Origin: Alkalilimnicola ehrlichii MLHE-1
GTDB taxonomy: Bacteria; Pseudomonadota; Gammaproteobacteria; Nitrococcales; Halorhodospiraceae
DNA: 32,000 bases
Direction: 5' to 3'
Assembly: GCF_000014785.1 (NCBI RefSeq)
Contig: NC_008340.1
Location: 120,001 to 152,000 of the forward strand
Within the stretch, counting starts at the first letter, position 1, and the number at the start of each line of letters is the position of its first letter. A program made the position numbers and the translations under genes. The notes under the pieces are model-generated. The model was not told where the DNA came from, searched no databases, and was given only the letters and a program-made list of their open reading frames with translations. Positions 4,849 to 32,000 of the stretch are shown here, piece after piece.

Positions 4849-6005
4849 TGAGATTGAGCGTGATGACAACGTTGGCACAGAAAACACCGCCCTCGGGCCA
4901 ATGGCGCCTCATCCCTCATTCGGAGGCCGCGTCACAAACCGTAAAGGGAGCACCTTTGGGCCAAATGTTGGACCACGACTTGGACTGGCTGACGGCAACG
5001 GCTCATCCCTCGCACGGCGAGGTGGGGCAGTTCGTCTCCGGCGATCATTATCTGCCGTTCTATGCTCACGATGGTGGTTTGGGTTTCTTACTGGCCGGCT
5101 TCGCTTTAGGGCGCATTCCGATCCGACGATACGTCATCAGCGGCAATTTGCCGTATTTGTCGAAGCCAGAGGCGGCAGAGGTGCTTTGCCTCCTGCGGCG
5201 GGAGCTTGGTAGCCGAGGCGTGCTATTCCTAATAGGCGTCGTTGAAGGTGAGCCCCTCTGGCAGGCGTTGCGAGAGCCAATAGTGCGAAGGCACTACCGC
5301 GTGTTGCAAAGTGGTGGGTTGGAAACGCGTCGGCTGGCGTGCTTTCCAGAGGGTTTTGATGCCTACCTGGCAAGTCTGCCCAGAAGAAGGCGTCAGGATT
5401 TGCGACGGAGCGAGCGGCGTTTTTTACGGCGATTTCCCGGCTGGTCTCTTGGGGTGTATACCGAGCCCGAGCTGTTGGGCCGTTTCCTAGGTCAGGTTGA
5501 GCCGGTTTCTTTGAGGACGTACCAAAGCCGATTACACGGTCTGGGGATAACTGAAACCGGTTGGATTGCCAGGAAAGTGCGGGCCGGTGCCCGCCTGGGC
5601 AAGGCTCGTTGTTACGCCCTCTTCGTCGATGGCCAGCCAGTTGCCTGGCGTATCGGGTTTGTTCATGGTGGCATCTACTACAGCCACCACATCGGCTATG
5701 ACCCGAGGCTGGCACAGTGGCACCCCGGCATTGTACTCCAGTTGAAAGTGATCGAGGATCTTTGTCAGCTCACGCCGGCCGTCAGCGAACTCGACATGTT
5801 GTATGGGGATAACCCCGTCAAAGAAAAGCTCAGCAACGCTTGCCGTCGGGAGGGGAAATTTTACCTGTTCCCGAATAACCTCAAGGGGAACCTAAGCTTT
5901 GCGGCATTGAGAGGCTTCAATGCCTTTTCGGACGGCGTTTCAGGCCTTGCAGACTGGCTCCGTATCAAGGAGCGTCTGCGGCGTCGCCTGCGCCGCGCGG
6001 TTTGA
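4848..6005 (+). CDS. GNAT-fold acyltransferase, CelD/BcsL- or FemAB-like (PEP-CTERM-locus type)
   Basis: ORF 4839-6005. ATG 4848 overlaps the preceding stop (TAATG). C-terminal half (GQPVAWRIGFVHGGIYYSHHIGYDP...HPGIVLQLKVIEDL...DMLYGDNPVKEK) has the same architecture as the 6691-7692 product. Confidence 0.65.
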   Translation: MRLSVMTTLAQKTPPSGQWRLIPHSEAASQTVKGAPLGQMLDHDLDWLTATAHPSHGEVGQFVSGDHYLPFYAHDGGLGFLLAGFALGRIPIRRYVISGNLPYLSKPEAAEVLCLLRRELGSRGVLFLIGVVEGEPLWQALREPIVRRHYRVLQSGGLETRRLACFPEGFDAYLASLPRRRRQDLRRSERRFLRRFPGWSLGVYTEPELLGRFLGQVEPVSLRTYQSRLHGLGITETGWIARKVRAGARLGKARCYALFVDGQPVAWRIGFVHGGIYYSHHIGYDPRLAQWHPGIVLQLKVIEDLCQLTPAVSELDMLYGDNPVKEKLSNACRREGKFYLFPNNLKGNLSFAALRGFNAFSDGVSGLADWLRIKERLRRRLRRAV

Positions 6006-6690: not shown

Positions 6691-7692
6691 TTACCGGCCT
6701 CGCAATGATCGTCTTATTCGGTCCTTTAATCCGGCTTGATCAAGAAACCAGGAGAGGCCTTCGGAAAGTGTCAGGCTGGATAAGTTTAGCACTACGGCCG
6801 CAATGGTTTTGGGAGTTAGCTTAAGCCAATATATATCGCCACAGACTCTGCAATGGCTTCCGAAGAATGCTTTGTGAGGGGCGTCTCCCTCGCAGAAATC
6901 GAAGTATTGAAAGCGTCCCTCTTTAAACAAATTATCTAGTGCTAGCCATTGTAATATCGTTCCTGGAGAGAGAGTTGCGGCGTTGGGTTTGTACCCCAAG
7001 AAACGGTATCGTAAAACGCCATCCTGAGCTGGGCAGTATAGGTAAGCAACAGGATCGCCAGAATGAAAAAGGAGAAAACCCCTTACTTGGTCATTCTGGG
7101 CTAAAGAAATGGCGGCATCGTAGAATTCCTGGCTATCAGGCAAAGCAGCACCTAGCAGTCGCTTTTGGTAACTGACGTCCGCCACTCCTCTCGCCAACTC
7201 AAGGAATCTTCTTATTTCATTCTCCGTCTTGTAGCACCGCCATTCCAACTCTCCCTCAGATGCCTTTTCGAACTTACGAATCTTTCGGCGAATGCTTTGT
7301 CGCGACTTTCCGGAAAAGGTGTGCAGGTAGGTTTCCCAGCCTTGAGATAAGTCAATGTAGTGTCGCCGATAAACTCGTGGGACGTACCGGATAAAACCTT
7401 TGTCAAGACTAAGGCGTGGGAACTCAGGTGCTTCCGGACTGGACCGTGCCAAAAATCCATGCGGACCCATTCTCTCCGGGTTTCTTCTTCCTTTTTTGTC
7501 GTGAATAAAAAGCGACTTATCTACGGATAATCGTAGCGTGATGCCGCCGAGGGTAAATCCGGCGAAGTGAACCGGTAGTCGAATTCTCTCTACAGGCGGG
7601 CTATTTCTCATTGCGGGGAACCGTTGCGTTGTTTTGTTCGAAATTGTTGAGTGATTGGGGTGAATTATAGCAGGTGGTTGCGATGTTTTCAT
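6691..7692 (-). CDS. GNAT-fold acyltransferase, CelD/BcsL- or FemAB-like (paralogue type of 4848-6005)
   Basis: ORF 6691-7722 (TTG). First ATG at 7692. SRQSIRRKIRKFEK, GDPVAYLYCPAQDGVLRYRFLGYKP, SPGTILQWLALDNLFKEGRFQYFDFCEGDAPHK. Confidence 0.65.
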   Translation of the reverse strand: MKTSQPPAIIHPNHSTISNKTTQRFPAMRNSPPVERIRLPVHFAGFTLGGITLRLSVDKSLFIHDKKGRRNPERMGPHGFLARSSPEAPEFPRLSLDKGFIRYVPRVYRRHYIDLSQGWETYLHTFSGKSRQSIRRKIRKFEKASEGELEWRCYKTENEIRRFLELARGVADVSYQKRLLGAALPDSQEFYDAAISLAQNDQVRGFLLFHSGDPVAYLYCPAQDGVLRYRFLGYKPNAATLSPGTILQWLALDNLFKEGRFQYFDFCEGDAPHKAFFGSHCRVCGDIYWLKLTPKTIAAVVLNLSSLTLSEGLSWFLDQAGLKDRIRRSLRGR

Positions 7693-7749
7693 TGCATGCC
7701 CGCATCCATTTCGGCGAAGCAATTGTGATCCTGGTGCGTTACAAAAAAG

Positions 7750-9016: not shown

Positions 9017-10431
9017 GGCACCTTCTCGGATTGTGTGGGTTAGCCCTGATTACGGTCATGCCGCCGCCACCCTGGATGTTGTGGTGTAGGGGGAGCTTGG
9101 CAGTTGGGTGAGTTTGCCGCCGATCAGGTAGGTCATGGTGATCAGGTTGCGCACGGTGCGGTAGCCGCGGGTGCGAGCCTTGGCGGCCTGAATCCGTCCG
9201 TTGAGGGCCTCGACGCCGCCGTTGTTCAGCCGCGAGTCGAAGGCGTTGAGGATGCCATCCCAGTGGGCCTTGATCGTGAGCGCCAGGCGTTTGAACGGCG
9301 CGAGCCGGCAGCGCCGTGCCCAGCTATACCAGCGCTGGAGTTCTGCCTCGGCGATCTCGCGTGGCGGCGCCTGGGCGTAGAGCTCGCGCAGGGCATCCTT
9401 GAGCCGCCAGGCGCGGGCGGTCTTGAGTTGCGTGCGCGAGAGCGTGTGGAAGTCCTGGAGTTGGCGGGCGGTCCAGCGCCAGCCGTCTTTCAGCCACACC
9501 CAGCGGGTGTGTTTGAGGATCGGCCGCTCCCGGACCTCGGCGCGGCGTACCTGGTCAACGGCGGCGTTGGCGAGCTGGATGACGTGAAAGCCATCGAACG
9601 TGACCGCAGCCGCCGGCAGGTAGCGGCTCACCCCGGCGATGTAGGCTTTCGACATATCGATACAGGCGGCGGTAACGGCCTCGGGCTCACCGCCGTGGGC
9701 CCGCAGGTCCTCGGCAAAGCGCGCCACGGTATGCTGATCGCGCCCCGGGCAGGCGTAGAGCACGCGCCGGCGCTCAAGGTCGTGGAAGATGCTGATGTAG
9801 TGGTGACCACGCCGGGCGGCGGTCTCGTCGACCCCCACCGTCGTGACCTCGCTGAAGTCCTCCTGCGCCCGGGCGGCATCGACGTAGTGATGCAGGATGC
9901 GCCAGAGCGCGTCATCACCCACGCCGAGATGGCGGGCCACCACCTGGACCGGCATCTGCGCGCACAGTGTCACCACCATCGCCTCAAAGAGTTCGGTGAA
10001 GCCGCTGCCCGGGCGGGCCCAAGGCACCGCCACTTGCGTTGTCTTCCCGCAGCTACCGCAGCGCACCCGTGGCACTGGGGCATGGATATAGGCGCGGTGC
10101 TCGAAAAAGTGCAGGTGCTGCCAGCTACGCCGGCGGCTGTCGTGGACCGGCTGATCCGCCGCCCCGCAGGCCGGGCAGGCAAAGCGCGCCCCGCGGGCAA
10201 AGCCCACCTCCAGGTCGATCTGTTTGGCGTCCGGGTCAAAGTCCACCGAAACCACCTCCCAAGGCGGCGCCAGACCCAGGGCGGCGGAAAACAGACTGAA
10301 CTCAGACGCGTTTGGGGCCATGGTGTCGGTACTCCGGTGGCAGTGATCCTGAGTGCACAACATATCGGTTACCGCCGCCTACCGGCTACCCGCCGGCACC
10401 CCCTGGCACCCACACAGATCGCGAAGGGACC
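9017..10431 (-). mobile_element. ISL3-family insertion sequence, apparently intact (1415 bp)
   Basis: 24-bp IRs GGCACCTTCTCGGATTGTGTGGGT (9017-9040) and the reverse complement of 10408-10431, GGTCCCTTCGCGATCTGTGTGGGT (18/24 identical). Flanked by the 8-bp direct repeat TGGCTTTG. Single transposase ORF. Confidence 0.9.
9056..10321 (-). CDS. ISL3-family transposase
   Basis: ORF 9056-10363, ATG at 10321. N-terminal zinc-finger region FACPACGA...RVRCGSCGKT, then a DDE region (GVDETAARRGHHYISIF...). Typical ISL3 layout. Confidence 0.9.
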   Translation of the reverse strand: MAPNASEFSLFSAALGLAPPWEVVSVDFDPDAKQIDLEVGFARGARFACPACGAADQPVHDSRRRSWQHLHFFEHRAYIHAPVPRVRCGSCGKTTQVAVPWARPGSGFTELFEAMVVTLCAQMPVQVVARHLGVGDDALWRILHHYVDAARAQEDFSEVTTVGVDETAARRGHHYISIFHDLERRRVLYACPGRDQHTVARFAEDLRAHGGEPEAVTAACIDMSKAYIAGVSRYLPAAAVTFDGFHVIQLANAAVDQVRRAEVRERPILKHTRWVWLKDGWRWTARQLQDFHTLSRTQLKTARAWRLKDALRELYAQAPPREIAEAELQRWYSWARRCRLAPFKRLALTIKAHWDGILNAFDSRLNNGGVEALNGRIQAAKARTRGYRTVRNLITMTYLIGGKLTQLPSSPYTTTSRVAAA

Positions 10432-13046: not shown

Positions 13047-14959
13047 ATCCGATGGGTGATGCGCCGGTACTGGCCGCAAGCACCGACCGGGCGGGGCATT
13101 CTGCGTCGCTCGAAGGCCGTTTGCAGCGTCGGCTGGATACCCTGGTGGGGGCGGCGCGTCGCTGCGGCGATCCCCCGGGTCGGCTTTGGGACCCCGTGTT
13201 GCGTGCTGAAACGCCGGCCGAGCACTACGGTCACAACAGTGCTGCGTTGGCCCTGCTGATGCGTGACGGGCCGGAGGGCGCGCAATGGCGTCCCATGGTG
13301 CGTACCTGGATGGCGCTTGAGCGCCGCCAGGTGGGCCACGAGCCGTTCAACCGCTTCCTGCTGTTACTGATGCGGGAGCACTTGTTGGCGACCGGCGCCC
13401 CGGCGGGGGACGGGCTGCCTTGGGAGGAGGCGCTGAACCGCTGCCCGGTAGCCCGCCGCTATCCTTCCAATAACTGGACGTTGCTCGGTGCGCTTTGTCA
13501 CCTGATCGAAGCGCCCGATCACCGCCGAGGCAGGGCGCTGGCCCGCCTTTTGAGCCTGCTCGAGCGTTGGACAACGCCTGCCGGCGGGTTCATCGACTTC
13601 CCCTACCGTCCGGCCCTGCCCCGGTCCGGTGCCACGCCGGTCGCCTATCACCACAAGGCGCTCTTCGTGGCTACCGTGGCCGGCTGCTACGTAACCTCCC
13701 CCGCCCTGGACCGGCATGTGCAACGGATGCTGGGCTGGGTCCGGTTGACTTGGGACGGTGACGGCCATGTTGGGGGCTTCGGGCGCAGTACCCATTCATT
13801 GTTCGGCGACGCCTGCCTGATGGCCAGCCTAGTATTGCTGGGTGTCCTGTCCAGGGAGAACCAGGACGGGGCGTTCGGTGCCATGGCCTCCGGTATCCTG
13901 GAGCGCTGGGCCGGCCAGCAACGCCCCGATGGGCTGTTGATGCTGAACCCGGCGGGACCGACGGCCGGTGGAGCCCCCGCTGGCTGGGACGATTACATGT
14001 ACCTGTCCGTCTACAACGCCTGGACCGCGGCCGTGTTGTCGTGGGCGCTGCACCGTGCCTGGACCGATGCCCGCCCGGACCAGGGGGCGCTTCGCCAGGC
14101 AGCGACGTTTGAGGTGGGCGGCAGGGTTGAAGCCGACGAGGCGGCGGGGCTGATGCGGTGCGCGCCAGAGGACGGTACGGTTGCCCTCATGTCCACCTCT
14201 GGGCAACCGCCTCAAGCGTTCGGGCGGGATTGGGCCGAGCTGCGTTATGCCGGTGCACTGCCGTACCACATGATTCGGGGCGGGACTGTCCTCTGTCCGC
14301 CCCCGGTGCGGGTGCATGCCGATGCGCTGCGGCGGGAACCGTCGCTGGCGGGCTGGACGCCGGTATTCCTTATCGGGGATGAACTCTTTGGGTTGGTGGA
14401 TTTTCAGGACGTCGCCCTGTCCCAAGACGGTGACGACATCACTATTCGCCTCAGCGGACAACCCGTCAGCCTCCTGCGGCCCGAGCCCCGCTCCCTGGGT
14501 CAACGATTGTTCGCCGCAGCCGATTGGCGCCTGGGTGGCCGGATGGGTCGAAATCGGGCGCTGCGGCGGCCGCGCGCCACTGGCGTGAGTGGCTCGGTGT
14601 GCTTCACGTTCCATCGGTCTCGCTGCGCCGTTTCCCAGGAACTCGTCATCCGGCACCGCTGTGATGCGGAAGTGCACTATCTCAATCCGGGCGGCCACGC
14701 GCTGATGACGGATGCCCTGCCTCTCAAGCGGGCGCTGGTCCAGAGTCCGTCGGAGAGTGACCCATCGGCGTCCGAAGTATCGCTCGATGTCTCCACCCTG
14801 CTGTCCGCGCGACCGGATGCGTCTATCCCCCATGCCATGGGTTTCAGTGCGCCGCCGACCCTGCTTCGGAAAGGGGGCTACAGACACCGGCTGTACCTGG
14901 ATTGGGGGGATCATGGACTACCCTGCAAGGGTGCCGCCGGCTTGGATAAGGGAGAGTGA
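13043..14959 (+). CDS. hypothetical 638-aa cytoplasmic protein (possibly alpha/alpha-toroid, heparinase II/III-like; unassigned)
   Basis: The GTG start overlaps the upstream stop (GTGA). Alternative ATG 13052 follows AGGTG. Coding-like composition versus the R/P/G-rich antisense ORF 13829-14914. No signal peptide or TM segment seen. Confidence 0.7.
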   Translation: MNPMGDAPVLAASTDRAGHSASLEGRLQRRLDTLVGAARRCGDPPGRLWDPVLRAETPAEHYGHNSAALALLMRDGPEGAQWRPMVRTWMALERRQVGHEPFNRFLLLLMREHLLATGAPAGDGLPWEEALNRCPVARRYPSNNWTLLGALCHLIEAPDHRRGRALARLLSLLERWTTPAGGFIDFPYRPALPRSGATPVAYHHKALFVATVAGCYVTSPALDRHVQRMLGWVRLTWDGDGHVGGFGRSTHSLFGDACLMASLVLLGVLSRENQDGAFGAMASGILERWAGQQRPDGLLMLNPAGPTAGGAPAGWDDYMYLSVYNAWTAAVLSWALHRAWTDARPDQGALRQAATFEVGGRVEADEAAGLMRCAPEDGTVALMSTSGQPPQAFGRDWAELRYAGALPYHMIRGGTVLCPPPVRVHADALRREPSLAGWTPVFLIGDELFGLVDFQDVALSQDGDDITIRLSGQPVSLLRPEPRSLGQRLFAAADWRLGGRMGRNRALRRPRATGVSGSVCFTFHRSRCAVSQELVIRHRCDAEVHYLNPGGHALMTDALPLKRALVQSPSESDPSASEVSLDVSTLLSARPDASIPHAMGFSAPPTLLRKGGYRHRLYLDWGDHGLPCKGAAGLDKGE

Positions 14960-20830: not shown

Positions 20831-22432
20831 ATGGCTATACCAATTTTGCTTCACGAGACCCTGCTGAGCAGCGCGGGGCGGGCCCCTTCATCACCGGCGG
20901 TCAGCTACCGGGATTCTTCACACGACTATGACACCCTTGCCACTGCCTGCCAAAGCGTGGCCGCAGCGCTGCGCGAATGCGGCCTGCTGCGTCAGGAGCG
21001 GGTGGCCGTCTACCTCGACAAGCGACCCGAGACGGTGCAGGCCTTGTTCGGTGCGGCAATGGCCGGAGGGGTCTTCGTCCCCGTCAATCCGCTGCTGAAG
21101 GCTGACCAGGTCGCCTACATCCTGCGCGACTGCAATGTCCGTATCCTGGTGACCACCGCTGACCGGCTCAAGGCGATCCGCCAGGCGCTGGTCCAGTGCC
21201 CCGACCTGCACACCGTCCTGGTCGTGGGCCGTTCGGACACCCTCGGCGAAGAGGAGCCTCCCTACCGGGTCCACGACTGGTACGACGTGGTCTCTACAGC
21301 AGGGCCGGCTCGGCCGCATCGCGTGATCGACAGCGACATGGCCGCCATCCTCTATACCTCCGGCAGTACCGGTCAGCCCAAGGGGGTGGTGCTCTCCCAC
21401 CGCAATATGGTTGCCGGTGCCCAGAGCGTGGCCAGCTACCTGGACAACCGGCCCGAGGACCACCTGCTGGCCGCACTGCCTTTCAGCTTCGATTACGGCC
21501 TCAGCCAGCTCACGACGGCCTTCTTGACCGGTGCGCAGGTGTCGCTGCTGAACTACCTGCTGCCGCGGGATGTGATCAGAGCGGTGGAAAAGCAGGGAAT
21601 CACCGGCCTGGCGGCGGTCCCCCCATTGTGGATCCAGTTAGCACAGCTGGAGTGGCCGGACGCGGCGCGCAAGACCCTGCGCTACGTGACCAATTCCGGC
21701 GGTGCCATGCCCCTGAAGACCTTGGAGGCGCTCCGGGCGCAACTGCCCGCTACCCGCTTCTACCTGATGTACGGGCTCACCGAGGCCTTCCGCTCGACGT
21801 ACCTGCCGCCGGAGGAGGTGGACCGACGGCCCGATTCCATGGGCAAGGCCATCCCCAATGCAGAGATCAGGGTGGTGCGTGAGGACGGCTCCCCGTGCGC
21901 CCCCGGCGAGCCGGGCGAGCTGGTGCACCGGGGGGCGTTGGTGGCCATGGGCTACTGGAACGACCCGGAACGGACCGCGCAGCGCTTCCGTCCGGCGCCG
22001 GGCCAGCCGGGCGGCTTGCCGCAAAAGGAATTGGCGGTCTGGTCGGGCGATACCGTACGCATGGACGAGGAGGGGTTTCTCTACTTCATCGGTCGACGCG
22101 ATGAGATGATCAAGACCTCGGGTTATCGGGTGAGCCCGAACGAGGTGGAGGAAGCCGTCTATGGCACCGGGCTTGTCGCCGAGGCCGCCGCGCTCGGGGT
22201 GCCGCACCCGGTGCTGGGGCACGGCATCGTTTTGGTCGTGTTGCCGCGCTCCACCGGCGTGACCGCGGAGGAGCTTTTGAATGCCCTGCGGCCCCGGGTA
22301 CCGGCATTCATGTTGCCCGCTCACGTGGAGCTTCGGCAACAACCCCTGCCGCGTAACGCCAATGGCAAGATCGACCGCAAGGGGCTATCCACCGACTTCA
22401 CCGACCTGTTTCAGGAGAACGCTGCACCGTGA
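20831..22432 (+). CDS. acyl-CoA ligase (AMP-forming), exosortase-A-system-associated type
   Basis: 533 aa. ILYTSGSTGQPKGVVLSHRN, YGLTE, SGDTVRMDEEGFLYFIGRRDEMIKTSGYRVSPNEVE, NGKIDRK. Confidence 0.9.
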   Translation: MAIPILLHETLLSSAGRAPSSPAVSYRDSSHDYDTLATACQSVAAALRECGLLRQERVAVYLDKRPETVQALFGAAMAGGVFVPVNPLLKADQVAYILRDCNVRILVTTADRLKAIRQALVQCPDLHTVLVVGRSDTLGEEEPPYRVHDWYDVVSTAGPARPHRVIDSDMAAILYTSGSTGQPKGVVLSHRNMVAGAQSVASYLDNRPEDHLLAALPFSFDYGLSQLTTAFLTGAQVSLLNYLLPRDVIRAVEKQGITGLAAVPPLWIQLAQLEWPDAARKTLRYVTNSGGAMPLKTLEALRAQLPATRFYLMYGLTEAFRSTYLPPEEVDRRPDSMGKAIPNAEIRVVREDGSPCAPGEPGELVHRGALVAMGYWNDPERTAQRFRPAPGQPGGLPQKELAVWSGDTVRMDEEGFLYFIGRRDEMIKTSGYRVSPNEVEEAVYGTGLVAEAAALGVPHPVLGHGIVLVVLPRSTGVTAEELLNALRPRVPAFMLPAHVELRQQPLPRNANGKIDRKGLSTDFTDLFQENAAP

Positions 22433-23664
22433 ATGGACAACGCCCTTGCCATGCGCCCATGGACCAGTTCGAGGTTGCCGACGGCATGCTGCAGGTGGGT
22501 GGCCGCCCGCTCTCCGATCTGGTGCAGCAGGCCGGCGGTACGCCCTTCTACGCCTACGACCGTCGCCTGATGACCCGGCGTGTCGCGGCGTTGCGCCAGA
22601 CCCTGCCAGAGGGGATTGCGCTTCACTACGCGATCAAGGCCAACCCCATGCCTGCCGTGGTCCAGCATATGGCCGGCCAGGTTGACGGTCTCGATGTGGC
22701 CTCGGCGGGGGAGTTGCGGGTGGCGTTGGATGCCGGGGTGTCCGCGGCGGATATCAGCTTCGCCGGCCCCGGTAAGACGGACGATGAACTGGCCGCGGCC
22801 GTAGCCGCGGGTATCACCATCAACCTGGAGTCGGCCACCGAGCTGGAGCGGCTGGCCGCCATCGCGGAGAAGATCGGTCACCGACCCCATGTGGCGGTGC
22901 GGGTGAATCCCGACTTCGAGCTCAAGACCTCCGGGATGAAGATGAGCGGCGGGGCCAAGCCGTTCGGCGTGGATGCGGAGGCGGTGCCGGCGTTGCTCAA
23001 ACGCATTGCGGCGCTGGATGTGCATTTTCGCGGTTTTCACATCTTTTCCGGGTCACAGAATCTGCGGGCCGAGGCCCTGGTGGAGGCCCAGGGCCTGACC
23101 CTGGACCTGGCGCTCCGGCTGGCGGACGATGCGCCCGGCCCGGTGGAGATGCTGAATATCGGCGGTGGCTTTGGCATCCCCTATTTCCCGGGCGACCGCC
23201 GGCTGGATCTGGCGCCGGTCAGTGAGCAGCTTGAAGCGCGGCTCCCGGCGGTGCGGGAGCGCCTCCCGGGGGTGGAGATCATCCTGGAGCTGGGGCGTTA
23301 CCTGGTCGGCGAGGCCGGCATCTACGTGGCGAAGGTAGTGGACCGCAAGGTCTCCCGCGGCCGCACATTCCTGGTCACCAACGGGGGGTTGCATCACCAT
23401 CTGGCGGCATCCGGCAACTTCGGCCAGGTCATCCGCAAGAACTACCCGGTCGCCGTCGGCAATCGCATGGATGCCAGCGCCAGCGAGACAGTGGATGTGG
23501 TGGGGCCGTTGTGCACGCCGTTGGATATCCTCGCCCAGCAGGTGGACCTGCCGCCGGCGCAGCCCGGTGACTGGATCGTGGTGTACCAGTCCGGTGCCTA
23601 CGGTTACACCGCGAGCCCGACGCGGTTCCTGGGGCATCCGGAACCGCTGGAGTTGCTCGTTTGA
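22429..23664 (+). CDS. PLP-dependent decarboxylase (Orn/DAP/Arg decarboxylase fold), exosortase-A-system-associated type
   Basis: 411 aa. GTG overlaps the ligase stop (GTGA); alternative ATG at 22459. TPFYAYD, HYAIKANP (PLP lysine), GGGFGIPY, EPGRY-like ELGRYLVGEAG, GAYGYTAS. Confidence 0.9.
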   Translation: MNGQRPCHAPMDQFEVADGMLQVGGRPLSDLVQQAGGTPFYAYDRRLMTRRVAALRQTLPEGIALHYAIKANPMPAVVQHMAGQVDGLDVASAGELRVALDAGVSAADISFAGPGKTDDELAAAVAAGITINLESATELERLAAIAEKIGHRPHVAVRVNPDFELKTSGMKMSGGAKPFGVDAEAVPALLKRIAALDVHFRGFHIFSGSQNLRAEALVEAQGLTLDLALRLADDAPGPVEMLNIGGGFGIPYFPGDRRLDLAPVSEQLEARLPAVRERLPGVEIILELGRYLVGEAGIYVAKVVDRKVSRGRTFLVTNGGLHHHLAASGNFGQVIRKNYPVAVGNRMDASASETVDVVGPLCTPLDILAQQVDLPPAQPGDWIVVYQSGAYGYTASPTRFLGHPEPLELLV

Positions 23665-23853: not shown

Positions 23854-23902
23854 TCCAAAGGGCCGGTTATATGATTAATGCTTGGGTCATGAGGGTGTGT
23901 TG

Positions 23903-25096
23903 GTGAGGGATAAGACAGTCTTGATACTTGGTTGCTTTCCTAGGATTTCTGTTCCTATAGCGCAGTGCCTAAAAAATCATGGGTTTGATGTCTATGTCGG
24001 TGATATTGGCAGCAATCCACGCAATCTATACTCAAATTATATTGATGGATTATTTAAGTTTTCTTCTCCAGAAAGAAGTGGCGACTGTTTTCTTAGTGAG
24101 ATTGTTCGTTTTATTGATGAGTTTCAAGTTGATTTTGTTGTTCCTGTTAGTGATGGTGAGTTGAGTGCGCTTGCTAAATATGAAGATCAACTTCGGAGCA
24201 GAGCTGTGTTGCTGCTCCCAGAGGCCAGAAAAGTGCGCGCAGTTTTGGATAAGGCTGAAACTTTGAGGTTGGCGAAAAACCTTAGCATCCCTGCGCCCGA
24301 GACATTCTATGTGAGTGGAGAGGACGACCTTGACGTGGTCTGTGAAAATGCGTCGTTTCCAGTCGTTGTGAAGCCATCTGACAGGAGTGTGGCGACGCCA
24401 TTGAGGGCTCGCCATGCAAAAAATGAAGCAGATCTCAGGGCGATTTTATTGCCTCATATCGGGTCAAAAATAATGTGGCTTGTTCAAGAGTACTTGCCCG
24501 GTCAGGGGGTTGGTGTCGAAGTCCTTTTTTGGAATGGAGAGGCGCGCGTTATCTTTCAACATAGACGGTTAAAAGAGCTTCCTGTGACAGGAGGGGTAGC
24601 TGTGCGCTGTATCAGTGAGAAGCCTGATCAAAAAATGGTAGCATATGCACTATCTTTGCTTTCAGAAATTGGCTGGGAAGGACTTGCAATGGTTGAGTTT
24701 AGGCAGGACCCAGTGACTGGTAGGGTTGGGCTAATGGAGATAAATGGTAGGTGTTGGGGGTCAATTTCTCTTCCTATAAAATGCGGTATAGAATTTCCAT
24801 ACTATGCTGTAATTCTTGCCTCTGGCGAAGAAATAGAATTTCCAGAACGCTATCCTTTGGGTCAAAAAATGAGGTGGCTTTCTGGGGATTTGGAAAGGTC
24901 GCTACAGCTGCTTGCCCAAGTGCGCCATGGAGAAGCGACGCTAGGTTGTTTTTTTAGGGATGCGTCCATTTCCTTTTCTGACTTTTTTGGGGACACCAAA
25001 GATGCCCTGTGGTCGTGGAGAGACCCCTGCCCAGCCATGGAAGATTTGAGATTTTTTCTTAGGGGGTTGATTCGCAGGGTGGTAAAAAAGTTTTGA
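23903..25096 (+). CDS. ATP-grasp carboxylate-amine/thiol ligase-like protein
   Basis: ORF 23882-25096 (TTG). GTG 23903 lies about 8 nt after GAGGG. Very low GC. FPVVVKPSDRS, WLVQEYLPG, GLAMVEFRQD...GLMEINGRCWGS match ATP-grasp ATP/Mg-binding blocks. Confidence 0.8.
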   Translation: MRDKTVLILGCFPRISVPIAQCLKNHGFDVYVGDIGSNPRNLYSNYIDGLFKFSSPERSGDCFLSEIVRFIDEFQVDFVVPVSDGELSALAKYEDQLRSRAVLLLPEARKVRAVLDKAETLRLAKNLSIPAPETFYVSGEDDLDVVCENASFPVVVKPSDRSVATPLRARHAKNEADLRAILLPHIGSKIMWLVQEYLPGQGVGVEVLFWNGEARVIFQHRRLKELPVTGGVAVRCISEKPDQKMVAYALSLLSEIGWEGLAMVEFRQDPVTGRVGLMEINGRCWGSISLPIKCGIEFPYYAVILASGEEIEFPERYPLGQKMRWLSGDLERSLQLLAQVRHGEATLGCFFRDASISFSDFFGDTKDALWSWRDPCPAMEDLRFFLRGLIRRVVKKF

Positions 25097-25226: not shown

Positions 25227-26141
25227 ATGTCAATGAGATATATTGAAAAAGGCGTAGTATTTTTATGTGATCTTGAGTCATTGGTTGGGGTTGTTAGCCA
25301 ACCTGACCAGCCTGCGGAGCTGGGTGTGATTATATTAGTAGGTGGGCCTCAGTATCGTGTAGGCGCACATAGGCAGTTTGTCCGTTTGGCCCGCTGTCTC
25401 GCCGCGAACGGTATCTCCTGCATGCGTTTCGACTACCGGGGCATGGGAGACGCCTCGGGTGCGGAGCGTGGCTATGGTCGGGTGCTGCCGGATATTGGGG
25501 CCGCGCTGGCGGCCTTTCAGGCCCAGGTGCCTCAGGTGCGGCGGGTTGTGCTCTGGGGGCTGTGTGGTGGTGCCAGCGCGGCCTGCCTGTACCGGGTGAC
25601 CGACGACCGGGTGGCAGGCCTTATCCTGGTGAACCCCTGGCTGGATGTGGAGGAGGCCCGGGCGAAGGTCCGGCTGAAGCACTACTACGCCCGCCGACTG
25701 CTCGCGGGGGATTTCTGGAAGAAGGCCCTGAGAGGCGGCCTGAGCGTCGGGGCTTCGGCAAAGGGCCTGCTGGGTACCGCCCGCGTGGCCCGTAAGGGCC
25801 ATGGCCAGCCCGCGGACGCTGTTGCGCAGACGGACGATATATACCCCGGGGACATGCTACGAGCCCTGCAGGCCGGGGGCGGGCGCAGCGCGGTATTCCT
25901 GAGTGGCCGCGACTATGTGGCCAGGACCTTCGAAGAGGCCATGGCCGGCCACCCGGCGTTTGCCGAGTTGGAACAGGCCGGGGCCGTGGAGGTGTGCCGT
26001 TTCCCATCCGCTGACCACACCTTTTCCAGCGCGGCGGCTATGCACCAGGTGGAGGAGGCGAGCCTGGAGTGGATCCAGGCTTTTCAGGGTCTGGAGCCGG
26101 AGCCGGCAACGCCGCCTGCCGCCGGCGAACAGGCCCGATGA
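25227..26141 (+). CDS. alpha/beta hydrolase, exosortase-A-system-associated hydrolase 1 type
   Basis: 304 aa. VIILVGGPQYRVGAHRQFVRLARCLAANGISCMRFDYRGMGDASG and nucleophile-elbow-like LWGLCGGA. The first ~100 nt are low GC, the rest high GC. Confidence 0.8.
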   Translation: MSMRYIEKGVVFLCDLESLVGVVSQPDQPAELGVIILVGGPQYRVGAHRQFVRLARCLAANGISCMRFDYRGMGDASGAERGYGRVLPDIGAALAAFQAQVPQVRRVVLWGLCGGASAACLYRVTDDRVAGLILVNPWLDVEEARAKVRLKHYYARRLLAGDFWKKALRGGLSVGASAKGLLGTARVARKGHGQPADAVAQTDDIYPGDMLRALQAGGGRSAVFLSGRDYVARTFEEAMAGHPAFAELEQAGAVEVCRFPSADHTFSSAAAMHQVEEASLEWIQAFQGLEPEPATPPAAGEQAR

Positions 26142-26193: not shown

Positions 26194-28124
26194 GGTCACC
26201 CAAGTTCGACACTTCAAGCCCATTTTTCACCCCGGGGCGAGGCGTAACCTGCTGAATTTAGATGATTGAGCATGCTTTACACCGCTAGGCGTTGTTGTGT
26301 CACGTGATATTGCTTATCGGTATTGAGGGCGGGGCGTGCAGCGGCTATAGTCGTGATATGTACACGCGCATCACCAAGTCGGGTCCACGCCGCTACCTGC
26401 AGTTGGTGCAGGGGTACCGGGACGACAATGGCAAGGTAAAGCAGCGGGTCGTTGCTAATCTCGGCCGCCTTGATCAGTTGGAAGCGTCAGATCTCGACGC
26501 CCTCATCAAAGGGCTTCAGCGGGCGGTGGGGCGCCCCGAGTCACTGCCCGAGGCCCCGCGCTTCGACACGGCCAAGGCCTTTGGTGATGTCTGGGCACTG
26601 CACCAGCTCTGGCAGGAGTTGGGGCTGGGTGAGGCCCTGAAACGCGCGCTGCGCTCTTCGCGCCGCCAGTTCGATGCCGAGGCCCTTATCCGAGCGATGG
26701 TCTTCAATCGTCTAGCTGCCCCGTGCAGCAAACTCGGCGTACTGGAATGGCTCCGTGAGGAAGCCAGTGTCCCTGGGCTTGATAGCGAAGCCATCCATCA
26801 TAAACAGCTCCTGCGCGCCATGGATGCGTTGGAAGAGCACAAGGAAGCCGTCGAACGGTCGGTGGCGGCCCAGTTGCGCCCGCTTCTGGACCAAGAGCTC
26901 AGCGTCATTTTCTATGACCTAACCACGGTGCGCATTCACGGCACCACCAGGGTGGCCGATGACATCCGCGACTACGGCCTGAGCAAGGAGACCGGCGGTA
27001 TTGGCCGCCAATTCGCCCTCGGCGTTGTCCAGACCGCCGAGGGCCTGCCCATCGCCCATGAGGTCTTCGAGGGTAACGTCGCCGAGACGCGTACTTTGGC
27101 GCCAATGATTGAGCGCCTGCTGGAGCGCTTTGCCCTCACGCGGGTAGTGGTCGTCGCCGACCGGGGCCTGCTGTCGTTCGACAACATCGACACCCTGGAT
27201 GCCTTGGGCGCCGAGCAAGGGCTGGCGGTGGATTACATCCTGGCCGTCCCCGGTCGCCGCTACCGCGATTTCGCCAAGTTGATGAGCACGCTGCATCCAC
27301 AACTGGCGGCGGCGGTCACCGAGCCGAGTGCCGACGTGGTGACCGAGACCACGTGGGAGGGTCGACGGCTGGTGGTAGCACACAATGCCGAGCGGGCGGC
27401 AGAGCAGACCGTCCAGCGCCGCGAAACCATCGAGGAACTGGATGCACTGGGGGCACAACTCGCGGAACGCCTCGACAACCAGGATGCTGGCCAGCCGGGT
27501 CGGGGTAGACGTTCCACTGATCGCAGCGCCTACCAGCGCTTCCACAAGGCAGTACTGGACAAGCGCATGGGCGCCATTGTTAAAACGGACCTCGGGGCGC
27601 CCCGGTTCAGTTACAGCATCGACACCGAGGCGTGGGCTCGGGCCGAGCAGCTTGATGGCAAACTGCTGCTGGTCACCAGCCTCAGCGACATGGAGGCCGA
27701 GGCTGTGGTGGAGCGTTACCGCTCCCTGGCCGACATCGAACGCGGCTTCCGGGTGCTCAAAAGCGAGATTGAAATTGCCCCGGTTTACCACCGCCTGCCA
27801 GAACGTATCCGGGCACACGCGATGATTTGTTTCCTGGCCCTGGTGCTCTACCGCGTCCTGCGTGGGCGGCTGAAGGCTGCCGGAAGCCCCCACTCACCGG
27901 AGAGGCTGCTGCGCGGTCTGAGGCAGATCCAACGCCACACCGTCCATGTGGGCAGCCAATCCTACGAGGGCCTGACACGGCCCAGCCAGGAGCAACTGGA
28001 CCTATTCGAGGTCGCCGGCGTGGAGGTGCCGAAGGAGCCCTGCTGAGCCTGTTGTGGCATTTTTCGAAATCTCAGTGCCGAGGAATCAATCAGTTACGTC
28101 CCTAACTGTCCAACTTGGGTGGTC
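26194..28124 (+). mobile_element. IS1634-family (IS4-like) insertion sequence, apparently intact (~1.93 kb)
   Basis: Imperfect terminal IRs GGTCACCCAAGTTCGACACTTCAAG (26194-26218) versus the reverse complement of 28100-28124, GACCACCCAAGTTGGACAGTTAGGG (18/25; core 17/19). Single transposase ORF. No convincing target duplication seen. Confidence 0.8.
26358..28046 (+). CDS. IS1634-family transposase
   Basis: ATG 26358 within ORF 26292-28046. N-terminus MYTRITKSGPRRYLQLVQGYRDDNGKVKQRVVANLGRLDQL is characteristic. DDE region (VVVADRGL..., YRSLADIERGFRVLKSEI). Confidence 0.9.
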   Translation: MYTRITKSGPRRYLQLVQGYRDDNGKVKQRVVANLGRLDQLEASDLDALIKGLQRAVGRPESLPEAPRFDTAKAFGDVWALHQLWQELGLGEALKRALRSSRRQFDAEALIRAMVFNRLAAPCSKLGVLEWLREEASVPGLDSEAIHHKQLLRAMDALEEHKEAVERSVAAQLRPLLDQELSVIFYDLTTVRIHGTTRVADDIRDYGLSKETGGIGRQFALGVVQTAEGLPIAHEVFEGNVAETRTLAPMIERLLERFALTRVVVVADRGLLSFDNIDTLDALGAEQGLAVDYILAVPGRRYRDFAKLMSTLHPQLAAAVTEPSADVVTETTWEGRRLVVAHNAERAAEQTVQRRETIEELDALGAQLAERLDNQDAGQPGRGRRSTDRSAYQRFHKAVLDKRMGAIVKTDLGAPRFSYSIDTEAWARAEQLDGKLLLVTSLSDMEAEAVVERYRSLADIERGFRVLKSEIEIAPVYHRLPERIRAHAMICFLALVLYRVLRGRLKAAGSPHSPERLLRGLRQIQRHTVHVGSQSYEGLTRPSQEQLDLFEVAGVEVPKEPC

Positions 28125-28929
28125 AGGCACCGTTATCGCGGAGTTCCAATGTCAGGCACTTCATGCCGCCCCCTGACTTCTGGAACTCGGAGATGGGCAT
28201 GGGATGCACTTGCAGCCCCATTTCCCGGTAGGTGGCGGCCAGGCCCCGGGCCCGATCGCTCAGTACGATGTGTCGGCCATCGCTCACCGCGTTCAGGCCG
28301 TACCCAACGGCATCGGCCTCCGCCGCCTCGATGACGCGCGGCACCCGGCGGTGGACGGCCTCCAGGCCTTCAGCCGTGAAGGCATCTGGATACAGGGCCA
28401 CGGTCTGTTCATCCACGATGGTCAGGGCCGTGTCCAGGTGGTAGAAGCGGGCGTCGGTCAGTTGCAGGCTGACCACCTCCAGGCCGAAGAACTCGGCCAG
28501 CTCCCGGTGGGCGGGCTTGTCGCTGCGCCACGGGTACCCGGCGAACAGGGTGTCGTTCCACAGCAGGGCATCCCCCTCGCCCTCGAAATCGTGGCGGGGC
28601 AGGCACAGCGTGCGATAGCCGCGGCGGCGGAACCATTGCTCGAAGAACTCTGTCTCGCCCTGCCTCTCCGGTTGCCGGAAGCGGGGCAGGGCCACCCGGT
28701 CGCGAATCACCAGGCCGCCGTTGGCCGTGAAGACCATGTCCGGCAGGTGCTCGATGGGGTCGATCAGGTGGACATCCCAGCCCAGCGTCTGGGTGTAAAG
28801 CTGGTACAGGCCCTGCCACTGGGAACGGGCCAGCTCTCTGCAGACCGGGTCATCCACGTGCATCCACGGATTGATCTCGTACTCGATATCGAAGTGCTCC
28901 GGCGGACACATGAGGACGGCTTTGCTCAT
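28123..28929 (-). CDS. amidinotransferase / DDAH-fold guanidino-group-modifying enzyme
   Basis: 268 aa. MCPPEHFDIEYEINPWM N-terminus, FYHLDTAL, and the C-terminal catalytic-Cys block SGGGMKCLTLEL. The stop codon lies within 1-2 nt of the IS1634 right end. Confidence 0.8.
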   Translation of the reverse strand: MSKAVLMCPPEHFDIEYEINPWMHVDDPVCRELARSQWQGLYQLYTQTLGWDVHLIDPIEHLPDMVFTANGGLVIRDRVALPRFRQPERQGETEFFEQWFRRRGYRTLCLPRHDFEGEGDALLWNDTLFAGYPWRSDKPAHRELAEFFGLEVVSLQLTDARFYHLDTALTIVDEQTVALYPDAFTAEGLEAVHRRVPRVIEAAEADAVGYGLNAVSDGRHIVLSDRARGLAATYREMGLQVHPMPISEFQKSGGGMKCLTLELRDNGA

Positions 28930-30548
28930 CGACCCCCGGCCTCCGCTTCCAGCCGGGCCATCAAGGCCTTGCGGTCCACCTTGCCGTTGGGGTTGAGCGG
29001 CAGCGCCTCCAGGGCGTGGATGACCCGGGGCACCATCACGCTGGGCAGCCGGCTGCGCAGCTGATCGCGTATCGCGGCCTCGTCGGCCGTCCCGGCCACC
29101 ACGAAGCCCACAATCCCGGCCGCACCGCTGGAGGTACGTGGCCAGCCCAGGGCCACGGCCTCGTCGGTGGCGGCCGCCTCGCGCAGGGCCTGCTCCACTT
29201 CGCCCAGTTCGATGCGTACCCCGCCCACCTTGATCTGATGGTCCATGCGGCCCAGGAACATGATGGGCTTGCCGGCCGGTGGGCGGCGCACCAGGTCGCC
29301 GGTCCGGTAGTGAACCGCGCCGTCCGAGGGCAGCCGGATAAAGGCCTGTTCCGTGCGCTCCGGATCGTTCCAGTAGCCCGGGGTGACTTGTGGCCCGCCA
29401 ATTAGCAACTCGCCCTCGGCCCCCTCGGGAACCGGTTGCAGGTCGTCATCCACCACGGTCAGCTGGACCTGGTTGCCCGGGTAACCGATGGGGACCATGC
29501 CGTGTTCACACTCGCCCGGCGAGCGTTCCGGGTCCCACAGGTAATAGGCGGAATCCACGGTGCATTCCGTGGGGCCGTAGGCATTGTCCACCCGCGCATG
29601 GGGGGCTGCTGCGGCCATCGCGGTGGCCAGCTCCGCGGACAGGGCCTCACCACCGAACCGGCACAGCCTCAGGGCCTGGAAGCGGCCCGGGCGCCAGCCG
29701 TCCCGCCGGTTCATGCCGTGACCGGCGGAGGGCGTGATATCGATGACGCTCAGCCTGCCCTCCTCGATGTACTTGTTGGGGTTGAACCACTCCTTCGCCG
29801 TGGGGCAGCAAAGGCAGGCGCCGAAGGCCCAGGAGACGTACAGGTCGAACATCGAGGAGTCGAAGGTGATGTCGTAAAACTGCGAGAAGCGGTCTGCCTC
29901 GCTGATCCCGAACGGCCGGTAGCGCTCCAGGGACATGGCGACGAAGCGCAGAGCGTTGCGGTGAAGCACTCCCACGCCTTTGGGCGTTCCCGTGCTGCCG
30001 GAGGTGAAGAACAGATAGGCCAGGTCGTCGGGTTGCACCGATGCCGGGCGCCAGTCAGACGGCGCACCCAACTCCGCGCGCGTCAGGAAACGGTGCTGCG
30101 GGAAGCGCGCCTGCAGTGCCTGGGCCGATTCGGCAAGGGGCAGCACCACGACCATGGGGACATCCATTCCAGGTAGCAAGTCGCTGAGCAGGGCCTCACC
30201 CTGCCCATCCGCCACCAGGGCCTGCAGGCCGGCCTGTTCAACCATCTGTTGGGTGCGTTCCTGCGGGAAGCCAGGGTTCAGCGGCACCACCGCCTTCCCC
30301 GCCATGAGCGTGCCGAGCAGGCCGCTGTAGACGGGCAGAGAGCGATTGGCCAGTACCCCGACCAACGGCGCCGTGGTCTCCGGCATGGCGCTTTGCAGGG
30401 CAGCACCGACCGCTGCGGCTTGGTGGTAGAGGTCGCTGTAGCTGTACTGCGCCCCTTGTACCTCTAGCGCGGGGCGACCGGAGTGGCGGTCGACGGATTG
30501 CAAGAAACCCTGGTGGAGACCGTAGATGCCGTCGAACCCTGTTGCCAT
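28926..30548 (-). CDS. stand-alone NRPS-type adenylation enzyme (DltA-like), no carrier domain
   Basis: ORF 28926-30617. ATG 30548 follows AAAGGAG. A-domain cores LAYLFFTSGSTGTPKGV, NAYGPTE, YRTGDLV, GRMDHQIKVGGVRIELGEVE, NPNGKVDRKAL. The stop overlaps the downstream start (ATGA). Confidence 0.85.
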   Translation of the reverse strand: MATGFDGIYGLHQGFLQSVDRHSGRPALEVQGAQYSYSDLYHQAAAVGAALQSAMPETTAPLVGVLANRSLPVYSGLLGTLMAGKAVVPLNPGFPQERTQQMVEQAGLQALVADGQGEALLSDLLPGMDVPMVVVLPLAESAQALQARFPQHRFLTRAELGAPSDWRPASVQPDDLAYLFFTSGSTGTPKGVGVLHRNALRFVAMSLERYRPFGISEADRFSQFYDITFDSSMFDLYVSWAFGACLCCPTAKEWFNPNKYIEEGRLSVIDITPSAGHGMNRRDGWRPGRFQALRLCRFGGEALSAELATAMAAAAPHARVDNAYGPTECTVDSAYYLWDPERSPGECEHGMVPIGYPGNQVQLTVVDDDLQPVPEGAEGELLIGGPQVTPGYWNDPERTEQAFIRLPSDGAVHYRTGDLVRRPPAGKPIMFLGRMDHQIKVGGVRIELGEVEQALREAAATDEAVALGWPRTSSGAAGIVGFVVAGTADEAAIRDQLRSRLPSVMVPRVIHALEALPLNPNGKVDRKALMARLEAEAGGR

Positions 30549-30705: not shown

Positions 30706-31920
30706 TTAACGCCCCTTGAAGAGACCCATGGCCAGGCTCATCCCGGCGTAGCGCCAACTGCCCAGGTGGCGGGGGTGGTGGCGCAGCGCCTCCAGGAAGG
30801 ACCGGCTGGCCCTGCGGGGGTTACCGCTCCAGTAGTGGTGATAGCCAAAGTCAAAGCAGGTGCCGGCCAGGCGTCGCTCGACGGCCTTGCGGTCGGAGCG
30901 TTCACCGGTGGGTCCCTCCAGCCCCCAGCGGGCCAACGCCTTTTCCACCACCAGCTTTTCGTAGTTGATGTCCGGCCATTGGGTGATGCAGCCGCTGCCG
31001 TGCAATCGGTACAGCGCGAACACCCGGTCCAGCTGGTGGATCTCGGTGTGGCGGGAGGCCCGCAGCCAGTAGTCGTAATCCTGACCCCGTTTCAGTTCGG
31101 GATCGAACCGGCCGACCTGCTCGATCAGCTCACGGCGGGCCATGACCGTGATGGTGTGCAGTAGCGAGCCAAAGAGCAGCCGGTTGTAGAGCCAGCCGGA
31201 GCCTTCGGTCAGCAGCGGGATCTCTTCCGGAGGTACCCCGGTATCAGGTGTTGCCGGTGCCAGGGCTTCGGGTGGGGGGAAGGCCTTGGACTGCTTGTCC
31301 CGTTTCCAGGGCAGCCAGTCCGAGTAGATCATGCCCACATCCGGGTGCGCCTCCAGGTACCCCACCTGCGCCGTCAGCTTGCCCGGCAGCCACACGTCGT
31401 CGGAATCCAGAAAGGCGATGTACTCCCCCTGGGCGGCATCCAGGCCCTGGTTCCGGGCCACCGCCGAGCCCTGGTTGGCCTGGGTCAACAGCCGTACCCG
31501 GTCACCGTAGGCTTGCACCCGGGCCACCGTGTCGTCACTGGAGCCATCGTCGATGACAATTAGCTCCTTGTGCGGGTAGTCCTGGGCCAGGACGCTGTCG
31601 ATGGCCTCCTCGATGTAACTGGCGGCGTTGAACGCCGGCATGATCACCGAAACCAGGGGCTGGGCGCTTGCATCGGCCGCTTGCGCTGCTGCCGCCGGGC
31701 CGCGCTGGAGGCAACCCAGCGTCCGTTGCCACAGCGCAGGTACCGTGCGGATCTCCTGGGTGGACCAGAAGGGTTCGCCGGGCACCACTGCGGCCTGCAC
31801 CGCGATACCGGCCTCCTGCCAGTCGTCCACCAGCCGCTGACTGGCAGGAGGCAGCTGCGGGGCATCCCCCTGCATCACTTCCACCCAGTGCACCTCGACG
31901 CCATCGGGCGGTTGCTGCAA
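30706..31920 (-). CDS. family-2 glycosyltransferase with an N-terminal extension (5' end may lie beyond the window)
   Basis: VSVIMPAFNAASYIEEAIDSV, LIVIDDGSSDDT, ARNQGL, FLDSDDVW. The ORF-track start at 31920 is a TTG and the frame stays open to nt 32000. Internal ATG at 31875. Confidence 0.8.
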   Translation of the reverse strand: MQQPPDGVEVHWVEVMQGDAPQLPPASQRLVDDWQEAGIAVQAAVVPGEPFWSTQEIRTVPALWQRTLGCLQRGPAAAAQAADASAQPLVSVIMPAFNAASYIEEAIDSVLAQDYPHKELIVIDDGSSDDTVARVQAYGDRVRLLTQANQGSAVARNQGLDAAQGEYIAFLDSDDVWLPGKLTAQVGYLEAHPDVGMIYSDWLPWKRDKQSKAFPPPEALAPATPDTGVPPEEIPLLTEGSGWLYNRLLFGSLLHTITVMARRELIEQVGRFDPELKRGQDYDYWLRASRHTEIHQLDRVFALYRLHGSGCITQWPDINYEKLVVEKALARWGLEGPTGERSDRKAVERRLAGTCFDFGYHHYWSGNPRRASRSFLEALRHHPRHLGSWRYAGMSLAMGLFKGR

Positions 31921-32000
31921 ACGGGCCTGCTCCAGCGCCTGGGCCAGGGCCGGTGCCAGTGGGTAGCCGGCGATCTCCAGGGTCTCGCCGCCGGCCAGGC

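Follow-up and report, generated by a model that had tools for sequence, protein, structure and literature searches.

What does a solitary amino-acid adenylation enzyme do beside a guanidino-group hydrolase in a polysaccharide locus? The question is raised by a 32,000-nucleotide stretch of the Alkalilimnicola ehrlichii MLHE-1 chromosome (NC_008340.1, positions 120,001 to 152,000), hereafter the window, whose own numbering is used unless genome positions are stated. Within an XrtA (exosortase A)/PEP-CTERM locus, the gene for a stand-alone adenylation (A) enzyme of the nonribosomal peptide synthetase (NRPS) type (P0001, 540 aa, 28926-30548, minus strand) runs directly into the gene for an Rv2323c/ArgZ-type guanidino-group hydrolase (P0002, 268 aa, 28123-28929, minus strand). 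We propose, with a probability of roughly 0.4, that the two form an optional module that would extend a side chain bound to an acyl carrier protein (ACP) by one amino acid, with the hydrolase as a helper. This reading and its rivals are drawn from sequence comparison.

As an initial annotation of the window had proposed, P0001 belongs to those stand-alone amino-acid adenylation enzymes whose carriers are separate proteins. The protein exceeds the cut-off of the NCBIfam amino-acid adenylation domain TIGR01733 (338.5 against 317.4 bits) and is made up of the Pfam domains AMP-binding and AMP-binding_C; a Pfam domain scan found no PP-binding domain, hence no fused carrier domain. The complete set of core motifs described earlier could be read as A3 FTSGSTGTPKG, A5 NAYGPTE, A7 YRTGD, A8 GRMDHQIKVGGVRIELGEVE and A10 NPNGKVDR, and the C terminus lies 17 residues past the A10 lysine, in agreement with the earlier description of an end about 20 residues after A10 without a peptidyl carrier protein domain. 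P0001 stays below the cut-offs of the DltA models TIGR01734 (226.8 against 559.85) and NF003417 (235.4 against 476) and of TIGR03098 (203.6 against 592.35), the true member of the last being the gene at 20831-22432. A phmmer search of all PDB sequences ranked the relatives of known structure. Among single-domain proteins, VinM (8k4r, 280 bits over the full length) and IdnL7 of the incednine pathway (6akd, 259 bits) score highest; modular A domains of the ordinary kind reach 222 bits at most, AlmE 215 bits and DltA about 165 bits. Scores of LgrA above that of VinM are sums over its two A domains.

Where is the carrier? None is encoded inside the window, as the initial annotation had stated, but the statement does not hold for the gene string as a whole. 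A Pfam PP-binding search of the whole genome gave five matches, one of which (genome positions 152537-152752, minus strand) lies about 540 bases past the end of the window. It belongs to an 84-aa ACP (genome 152513-152767, L001:5513-5767, minus strand) with the invariant phosphopantetheine-site motif PELDSMAV. The ACP gene heads a minus-strand string about 2 kb upstream of the A enzyme: after a gap of 13 bp comes an in-frame fusion of a TIGR03101 hydrolase with a GT2 glycosyltransferase (hydrolase-2::GT2; 30706-32000 and on to genome 152499, L001:3706-5499, minus strand), then, after 157 bp, the A gene, and finally the P0002 gene, which overlaps it by 4 bp. This overlap, the ATGA at 28926-28929 in which the stop of the P0001 gene is the start of the P0002 gene, was read directly and is as first described. 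A simple promoter and terminator scan found neither between GT2 and the A gene nor after the P0002 gene, which fits co-transcription as weak evidence. The fusion is a 597-aa gene call in a sister metagenome contig (L003) and one continuous frame in a second A. ehrlichii strain (L089, by tblastn). Hydrolase 2 and GT2 are separate genes in four other loci (L090, L096, L091 and L005), and a GT2 of 62% identity exists in a genome without the A enzyme. VinL matches the cassette ACP weakly (23 bits). A complex prediction from alignments of P0001 and the ACP reached a score of 0.17 against a mark of 0.32, which carries no weight either way. As a separate observation, the ACP has a relative of known structure in PDB entry 2lki, labelled 'putative uncharacterized protein' (81 bits, E = 5e-22).

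The sister contig L003 has the same gene order and is 95-97% identical, and the comparison places both genes of the pair under purifying selection (dN/dS 0.09 for P0001 and 0.05 for P0002, each of equal length in both loci and free of indels). Equal length and low dN/dS indicate working genes rather than chance frames. The 4-bp overlap is also present in L003 and L097, and an overlap of like kind joins the A gene to a methyltransferase-like gene in L092.

P0002 had been described as an amidinotransferase/DDAH-fold enzyme, of which the hydrolase part stands. The protein passes the Mtb-type dimethylargininase model NF045659 (312.7 against 300 bits), stays below the arginine dihydrolase model NF052232 (235.5 against 450), and has the guanidino-modifying fold expected from the start, with matches to Pfam ADI and DDAH_eukar. 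Its NCBIfam and Pfam matches comprise hydrolase-type families only, without any amidinotransferase model of the AGAT/StrB1 type. Among PDB sequences, the arginine dihydrolase domain of the cyanobacterial enzymes AgrE and ArgZ matches at E = 7e-59 over the full length, and Pseudomonas DDAH at 2e-06. The block GGGMKC near the C terminus, previously named as catalytic, aligns with AAKC of AgrE, at the one residue by which the deposited AgrE sequences 6lrf and 6lrh differ (Cys versus Ala), and we take its cysteine as the putative catalytic residue. The histidine block FYHLDT is identical in P0002 and AgrE. The end-to-end alignment with the dihydrolase domain takes in both blocks. Unlike ArgZ and AgrE, P0002 consists of one domain only, with no ornithine cyclodeaminase part, and its gene is coupled to that of an A enzyme within a polysaccharide operon. 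The product that AgrE and ArgZ form from arginine is ornithine; Mycobacterium tuberculosis requires Rv2323c to catabolise arginine (PMC4569260).

Two solo relatives of P0002 clarify its probable substrate. One, in Thioalkalivibrio ALJ15 (L004), adjoins rpoD and is 72% identical, and the other (L099) adjoins groES-groEL and mycothiol-type genes and is 65% identical. An alignment of 11 locus-linked and these 2 solo copies has 101 invariant columns and no column that is fixed in the 11 linked copies yet different in both solo ones. Because P0002 is so close to copies in a housekeeping context and carries no residue signature of its own, we expect it to share their chemistry and to act on a free small molecule, of which L-arginine is the simplest candidate. 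Such a substrate would favour a helper or supply role over the tailoring of a bound residue.

The pair faces a cassette whose chemistry appears to run on a carrier protein. An adenylate-forming ligase (20831-22432, plus strand; TIGR03098, 792 bits against a cut-off of 592) is followed by a decarboxylase dependent on pyridoxal phosphate (PLP) (22429-23664, plus strand; TIGR03099, 635 bits against 478). The initial annotation had named them an acyl-CoA ligase and an Orn/DAP/Arg-type decarboxylase, and neither name survives: the best single-domain PDB match of the ligase is the ACP-loading VinN (3wvn, 227 bits), and the decarboxylase scores 269 bits with BtrK, the L-glutamyl-[BtrI ACP] decarboxylase, against 164 for diaminopimelate (DAP) decarboxylase. 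The accompanying suggestion of a polyamine-derived decoration was rejected, because the decarboxylase resembles the carrier-protein-dependent BtrK, not the free Orn/Arg decarboxylases, and free-polyamine chemistry is thus not indicated. The other half of that suggestion, an amino-acid-derived decoration of the polymer, fares better, since the locus looks like an XrtA/PEP-CTERM polysaccharide pathway of this sort, with chemistry that would be based on a carrier protein as in the Vin, Btr, Dlt and Alm systems.

The closest model is vicenistatin biosynthesis, in which VinN loads 3-methylaspartate on the ACP VinL, VinO decarboxylates it there, and VinM forms a dipeptidyl-ACP by attaching L-alanine to the amine thus released, the alanine being removed later by an amidohydrolase (PMC11284099). 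PDB entry 8K4R is the VinM-VinL complex. With relatives of VinN, VinO/BtrK and VinM and an ACP at the locus, counterparts of all four proteins are present. Like P0001, VinM and IdnL7 are stand-alone enzymes of about 540 aa without a carrier domain; they are of the amide-forming type, and their partners are a free-standing ACP, a VinN-type ligase and a PLP decarboxylase, all three of which have counterparts here. Enzymes of the VinM type carry a conserved tyrosine in contact with the pantoate moiety, and they take aminoacyl-ACP but not holo-ACP as acceptor. Unlike P0001, they use the small substrates Gly, Ala or Ser through a pocket whose small residues are conserved in that type, whereas the pocket of P0001 is charged and its amide formation putative; and the pathways of VinM and IdnL7 serve macrolactam polyketide synthases of actinomycetes, P0001 belonging instead to a proteobacterial polysaccharide locus. 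Butirosin biosynthesis (BtrI/BtrJ/BtrK) offers a second parallel, in that an amino acid is assembled and decarboxylated on a small carrier protein before another one is attached to its amine. The locus shares with it a decarboxylase closest to BtrK and the ATP-grasp genes that accompany the cassette. In the butirosin pathway an ATP-grasp enzyme rather than an A domain carries out the extension, and the acceptor is an aminoglycoside.

To see what travels with the A enzyme, we compared 11 loci of the P0001 family: the window, L003, L005, L009, L089 to L092, L096, L097 and L098. Relatives of the A enzyme at 54-74% identity are numerous and come from Alkalilimnicola, Thioalkalivibrio, Ectothiorhodospira, Thauera, Azoarcus, Rubrivivax and metagenomes. 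All 11 lie in a polysaccharide cluster, ten have the ACP, hydrolase 2 and hydrolase 1 within 10 kb, and the TIGR03099 decarboxylase is present in each of the nine loci or genomes in which it could be checked. The gene after the A gene is DDAH-like in seven of the 11 (in L091 with a GNAT gene in between), so that the overlap-coupled pair of the initial annotation does stay adjacent in several loci, with the DDAH-fold gene as an optional partner. In three loci the slot is taken by a methyltransferase-like gene; L003 has both and L009 neither. This family of 231-235 aa (L003:8865-9572, L090:11658-12353, L092:11614-12318, L096:5437-6129) shows weak similarity to S-adenosylmethionine-dependent methyltransferases, with sub-threshold Pfam matches and no matching NCBIfam model. 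In L098, L009 and L091 the A gene has a FemAB-like (PF13480) or GNAT gene as its immediate neighbour. Two ACP paralogues occur in L091 (Thauera; 9710-9976 and 13313-13561, 57% identical to each other) and in L009, a Burkholderiales metagenome-assembled genome (8592-8843 and 14160-14411), and in L097 the sole nearby ACP gene is directly upstream of the A gene.

The pair is rarer than its cassette. Of 400 genomes sampled evenly from the class, 43 have the cassette decarboxylase TIGR03099 above its cut-off, and besides the window's own genome a P0001 orthologue was found in 1 of 399. The pair accompanies about one of 42 sampled cassettes. No P0002 relative above 43% identity was found in the 399 other genomes, and neither protein was found in 60 relatives, species of the same genus included. 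A scan of metagenome contigs with P0001 alone found only the sister contig L003. A scan of genome contigs with the family alignment, which carries generic A-domain motifs, returned almost exclusively unrelated NRPS genes and one true relative, L009. In A. ehrlichii strain L089 (CP184336), the flanking PaaK-like, AsnB-like, decarboxylase and ligase proteins are 95-99% identical to those of the window, and the central ACP, hydrolase::GT2, A enzyme, DDAH-like protein and hydrolase 1 merely 51-85%. Near-identical flanks around a divergent centre imply that the module is exchanged as a block, and this mosaic allele suggests that the block was replaced within a species. For the XrtA carrier-protein cassette the pair is probably an optional accessory, rare and exchanged horizontally.

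We next consider what P0001 may activate. The ten GrsA code positions were placed by motif anchoring (FDxS, TPS, GGE, NxYGPTE and A10) and correspond to D230, S231, F234, D270, R297, G299, A323, V331, D332 and K523 of P0001. The specificity code, the prediction of which had been proposed, is DSFDRG(V/A)VDK in 117 of 120 relatives (DSFDRGVVDK in 100 and DSFDRGAVDK in 17). By the same anchoring, D230 and K523, the equivalents of Asp235 and Lys517, are invariant across the 120, which indicates an alpha-amino acid as substrate, and the near-invariance of the whole code indicates one fixed substrate for the family, whichever gene comes next. The pocket carries charges at three code positions (Asp at 278 and 331, Arg at 299, the last invariant); being invariant, charged and polar, it speaks against Gly, Ala and Ser. 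The acidic residues at 278 and 331 are shared with the ornithine code DVGEIGSIDK, and seven of ten positions agree with the codes DAKDLGVVDK and DAQDLGVVDK, which we take to be those for Glu/Gln in the Stachelhaus tables. Judged by the pocket residues, the side chain is likelier to be long and polar or charged (Glu, Gln, citrulline or ornithine) than small.

Put together, the extension of an ACP-bound side chain would proceed as follows. The VinN-like ligase would load an amino diacid onto the ACP, and the BtrK/VinO-like decarboxylase would turn the loaded unit into an ACP-bound omega-amino acid. P0001 would adenylate its one fixed alpha-amino acid and, like VinM and IdnL7, join it to the free amine of the bound unit to give a dipeptidyl-ACP, from which GNAT, FemAB-like or alpha/beta-hydrolase enzymes of the locus may transfer the unit to a polymer sugar. 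P0002 would act on free L-arginine or a close analogue to give ornithine or citrulline, and so could supply or balance the amino acid used by P0001, being dispensable where housekeeping metabolism suffices. For P0001 itself, amide formation on the aminoacyl-ACP is tentatively preferred to a thioester on holo-ACP, which may be possible rather than probable. A narrower version, in which P0001 would place citrulline or ornithine, produced locally from arginine by the coupled hydrolase, on the end of the ACP-bound omega-amino acid and so make a dipeptidyl, ureido- or amino-bearing exopolysaccharide side chain, the cassette then being the primary-metabolism counterpart of macrolactam and butirosin logic, strikes us as unlikely. 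We know of no bacterial polysaccharide for which such a side chain has been described.

Several observations weigh against the side-chain extension. The pocket code does not clearly indicate an arginine-derived amino acid, and of the small-substrate residues of the VinM type (IdnL7 C217, A285 and T318), the one that could be placed is not shared, P0001 having Ser, not Cys, at code position 236. The methyltransferase-like gene alternates with the P0002 gene downstream of the A gene, a pattern easier to square with interchangeable tailoring enzymes than with the supply of a precursor. The extra ACP gene of L091 and L009 lies directly upstream of the A gene (or of a FemAB-like and A gene pair), an arrangement in keeping with an enzyme that has its own carrier. 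Finally, neither the window nor L001 contains a match to the GNAT of about 280 aa that is encoded near hydrolase 1 in L089, L097, L091, L005 and L009, and tblastn found no trace of the methyltransferase-like gene in the window. With both missing and an insertion sequence (IS) abutting the pair, the pathway may be incomplete in this genome.

The best-surviving rival, which we regard as plausible without expecting it to be correct, is that P0001 works as DltA or AlmE do: it would load its amino acid as a thioester on holo-ACP or on a second ACP, and a GNAT, FemAB-like or hydrolase-fold transferase would aminoacylate the polysaccharide or a lipid, leaving the ligase and decarboxylase uninvolved. 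DltA/DltC (D-alanylation of teichoic acid) and AlmE/AlmF/AlmG (glycine on Vibrio lipid A) likewise pair a stand-alone A enzyme with a small carrier to aminoacylate a surface polymer, and P0001, a regular NRPS-type A domain by TIGR01733, counts AlmE and DltA among its clear sequence relatives. VinM and IdnL7 outrank these two by 45-115 bits, P0001 lies far under the DltA cut-offs, and its pocket is a different one, although that pocket is not of the small VinM type either. The gene neighbourhoods cut both ways as well: the ACP genes directly upstream of the A gene in L091, L009 and L097 and the abutting FemAB-like or GNAT genes in L098, L009 and L091 suit direct aminoacylation, whereas no partner of the DltB/MBOAT, DltD or AlmG type was found among the genes examined, and the P0001 family is tied to the VinN-like/BtrK-like cassette in every checkable locus.

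It is unlikely that P0001 attaches arginine and that P0002 then converts the bound arginyl residue to citrullyl or ornithyl, with the methyltransferase-like protein as an alternative tailoring enzyme for the same residue. Translational coupling of the two genes, the slot that P0002 and the methyltransferase-like gene share downstream of the A gene (with both in L003), and the acidic code positions 278 and 331 held in common with the ornithine code would all agree with it. The invariant Arg at code position 299 would be odd in an arginine-binding pocket, and the 65-72% identity of P0002 to the solo copies, with no residue signature, argues for the same free small-molecule substrate. That the hydrolase is an ordinary arginine-catabolic gene which hitch-hiked into a recombination-prone, IS-rich polysaccharide locus, as its solo copies, its absence from four of the 11 loci and the elements IS1634, ISL3 and IS481 at the locus might suggest, is highly improbable, because the adjacency recurs in at least seven loci of distinct lineages (Alkalilimnicola, Thauera, two Rhodocyclaceae and Rubrivivax) in spite of the rarity of each family in the sampled genomes, the 4-bp overlap is kept in three loci, and at least 14 further pairs of cluster representatives agree in longest-contig size across both protein searches.

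The remaining genes of the locus place the side-chain extension module in its setting. A transposase of the IS1634 family (26292-28046, plus strand; NF033559, 391 bits) separates the pair from the convergent operon of ligase, decarboxylase, ATP-grasp ligase and hydrolase 1, and its element, within 26194-28124, occupies the slot of the 235-aa methyltransferase-like gene of L003. The ATP-grasp ligase (23882-25096, plus strand; Pfam ATPgrasp_Ter) lies between the decarboxylase and hydrolase 1. The initial annotation had counted it as part of the system, but it is absent from L003, where hydrolase 1 abuts the decarboxylase; ATP-grasp genes adjoin the cassette in L005 and L097. Hydrolase 1, an exosortase A system-associated, S33-like alpha/beta-fold protein (25227-26141, plus strand; TIGR03100, 298 bits against 168), differs from its L003 counterpart in the last 16 residues. 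Beyond the ACP string follow canonical XrtA genes, namely the stp2 and stp3 glycosyltransferases, the amidotransferase TIGR03108 and exosortase A. Elsewhere in the window, a 388-aa protein with a clear PF13480 (FemAB-like GNAT) domain is encoded at 4839-6005 (plus strand) after two polysaccharide deacetylase-like genes, with a weak paralogue at 6691-7722 (minus strand), and neither matches an NCBIfam model. Both are candidate transferases for the carrier-bound unit.

The initial annotation knew of no such pathway for PEP-CTERM loci, and we likewise found no published description of one, nor of the pocket code, the P0001 family or the cassette in the exosortase literature. The pair is embedded in the exosortase A cassette (TIGR03098, TIGR03099, TIGR03100 and TIGR03101), which is catalogued and uncharacterised, and lies outside the catalogued set. 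The cassette of ligase, decarboxylase, ACP and hydrolases, present in about a tenth of the sampled genomes of the class, is catalogued solely as hypothetical families, and the Vin/Btr-like carrier-protein reading provides a concrete, testable model for it and for the pair. If this model is true, floc- and biofilm-forming bacteria would decorate their matrix polysaccharide with a peptide-like side chain, and the variable slot for the A enzyme, hydrolase and methyltransferase would be a source of strain-level surface diversity.

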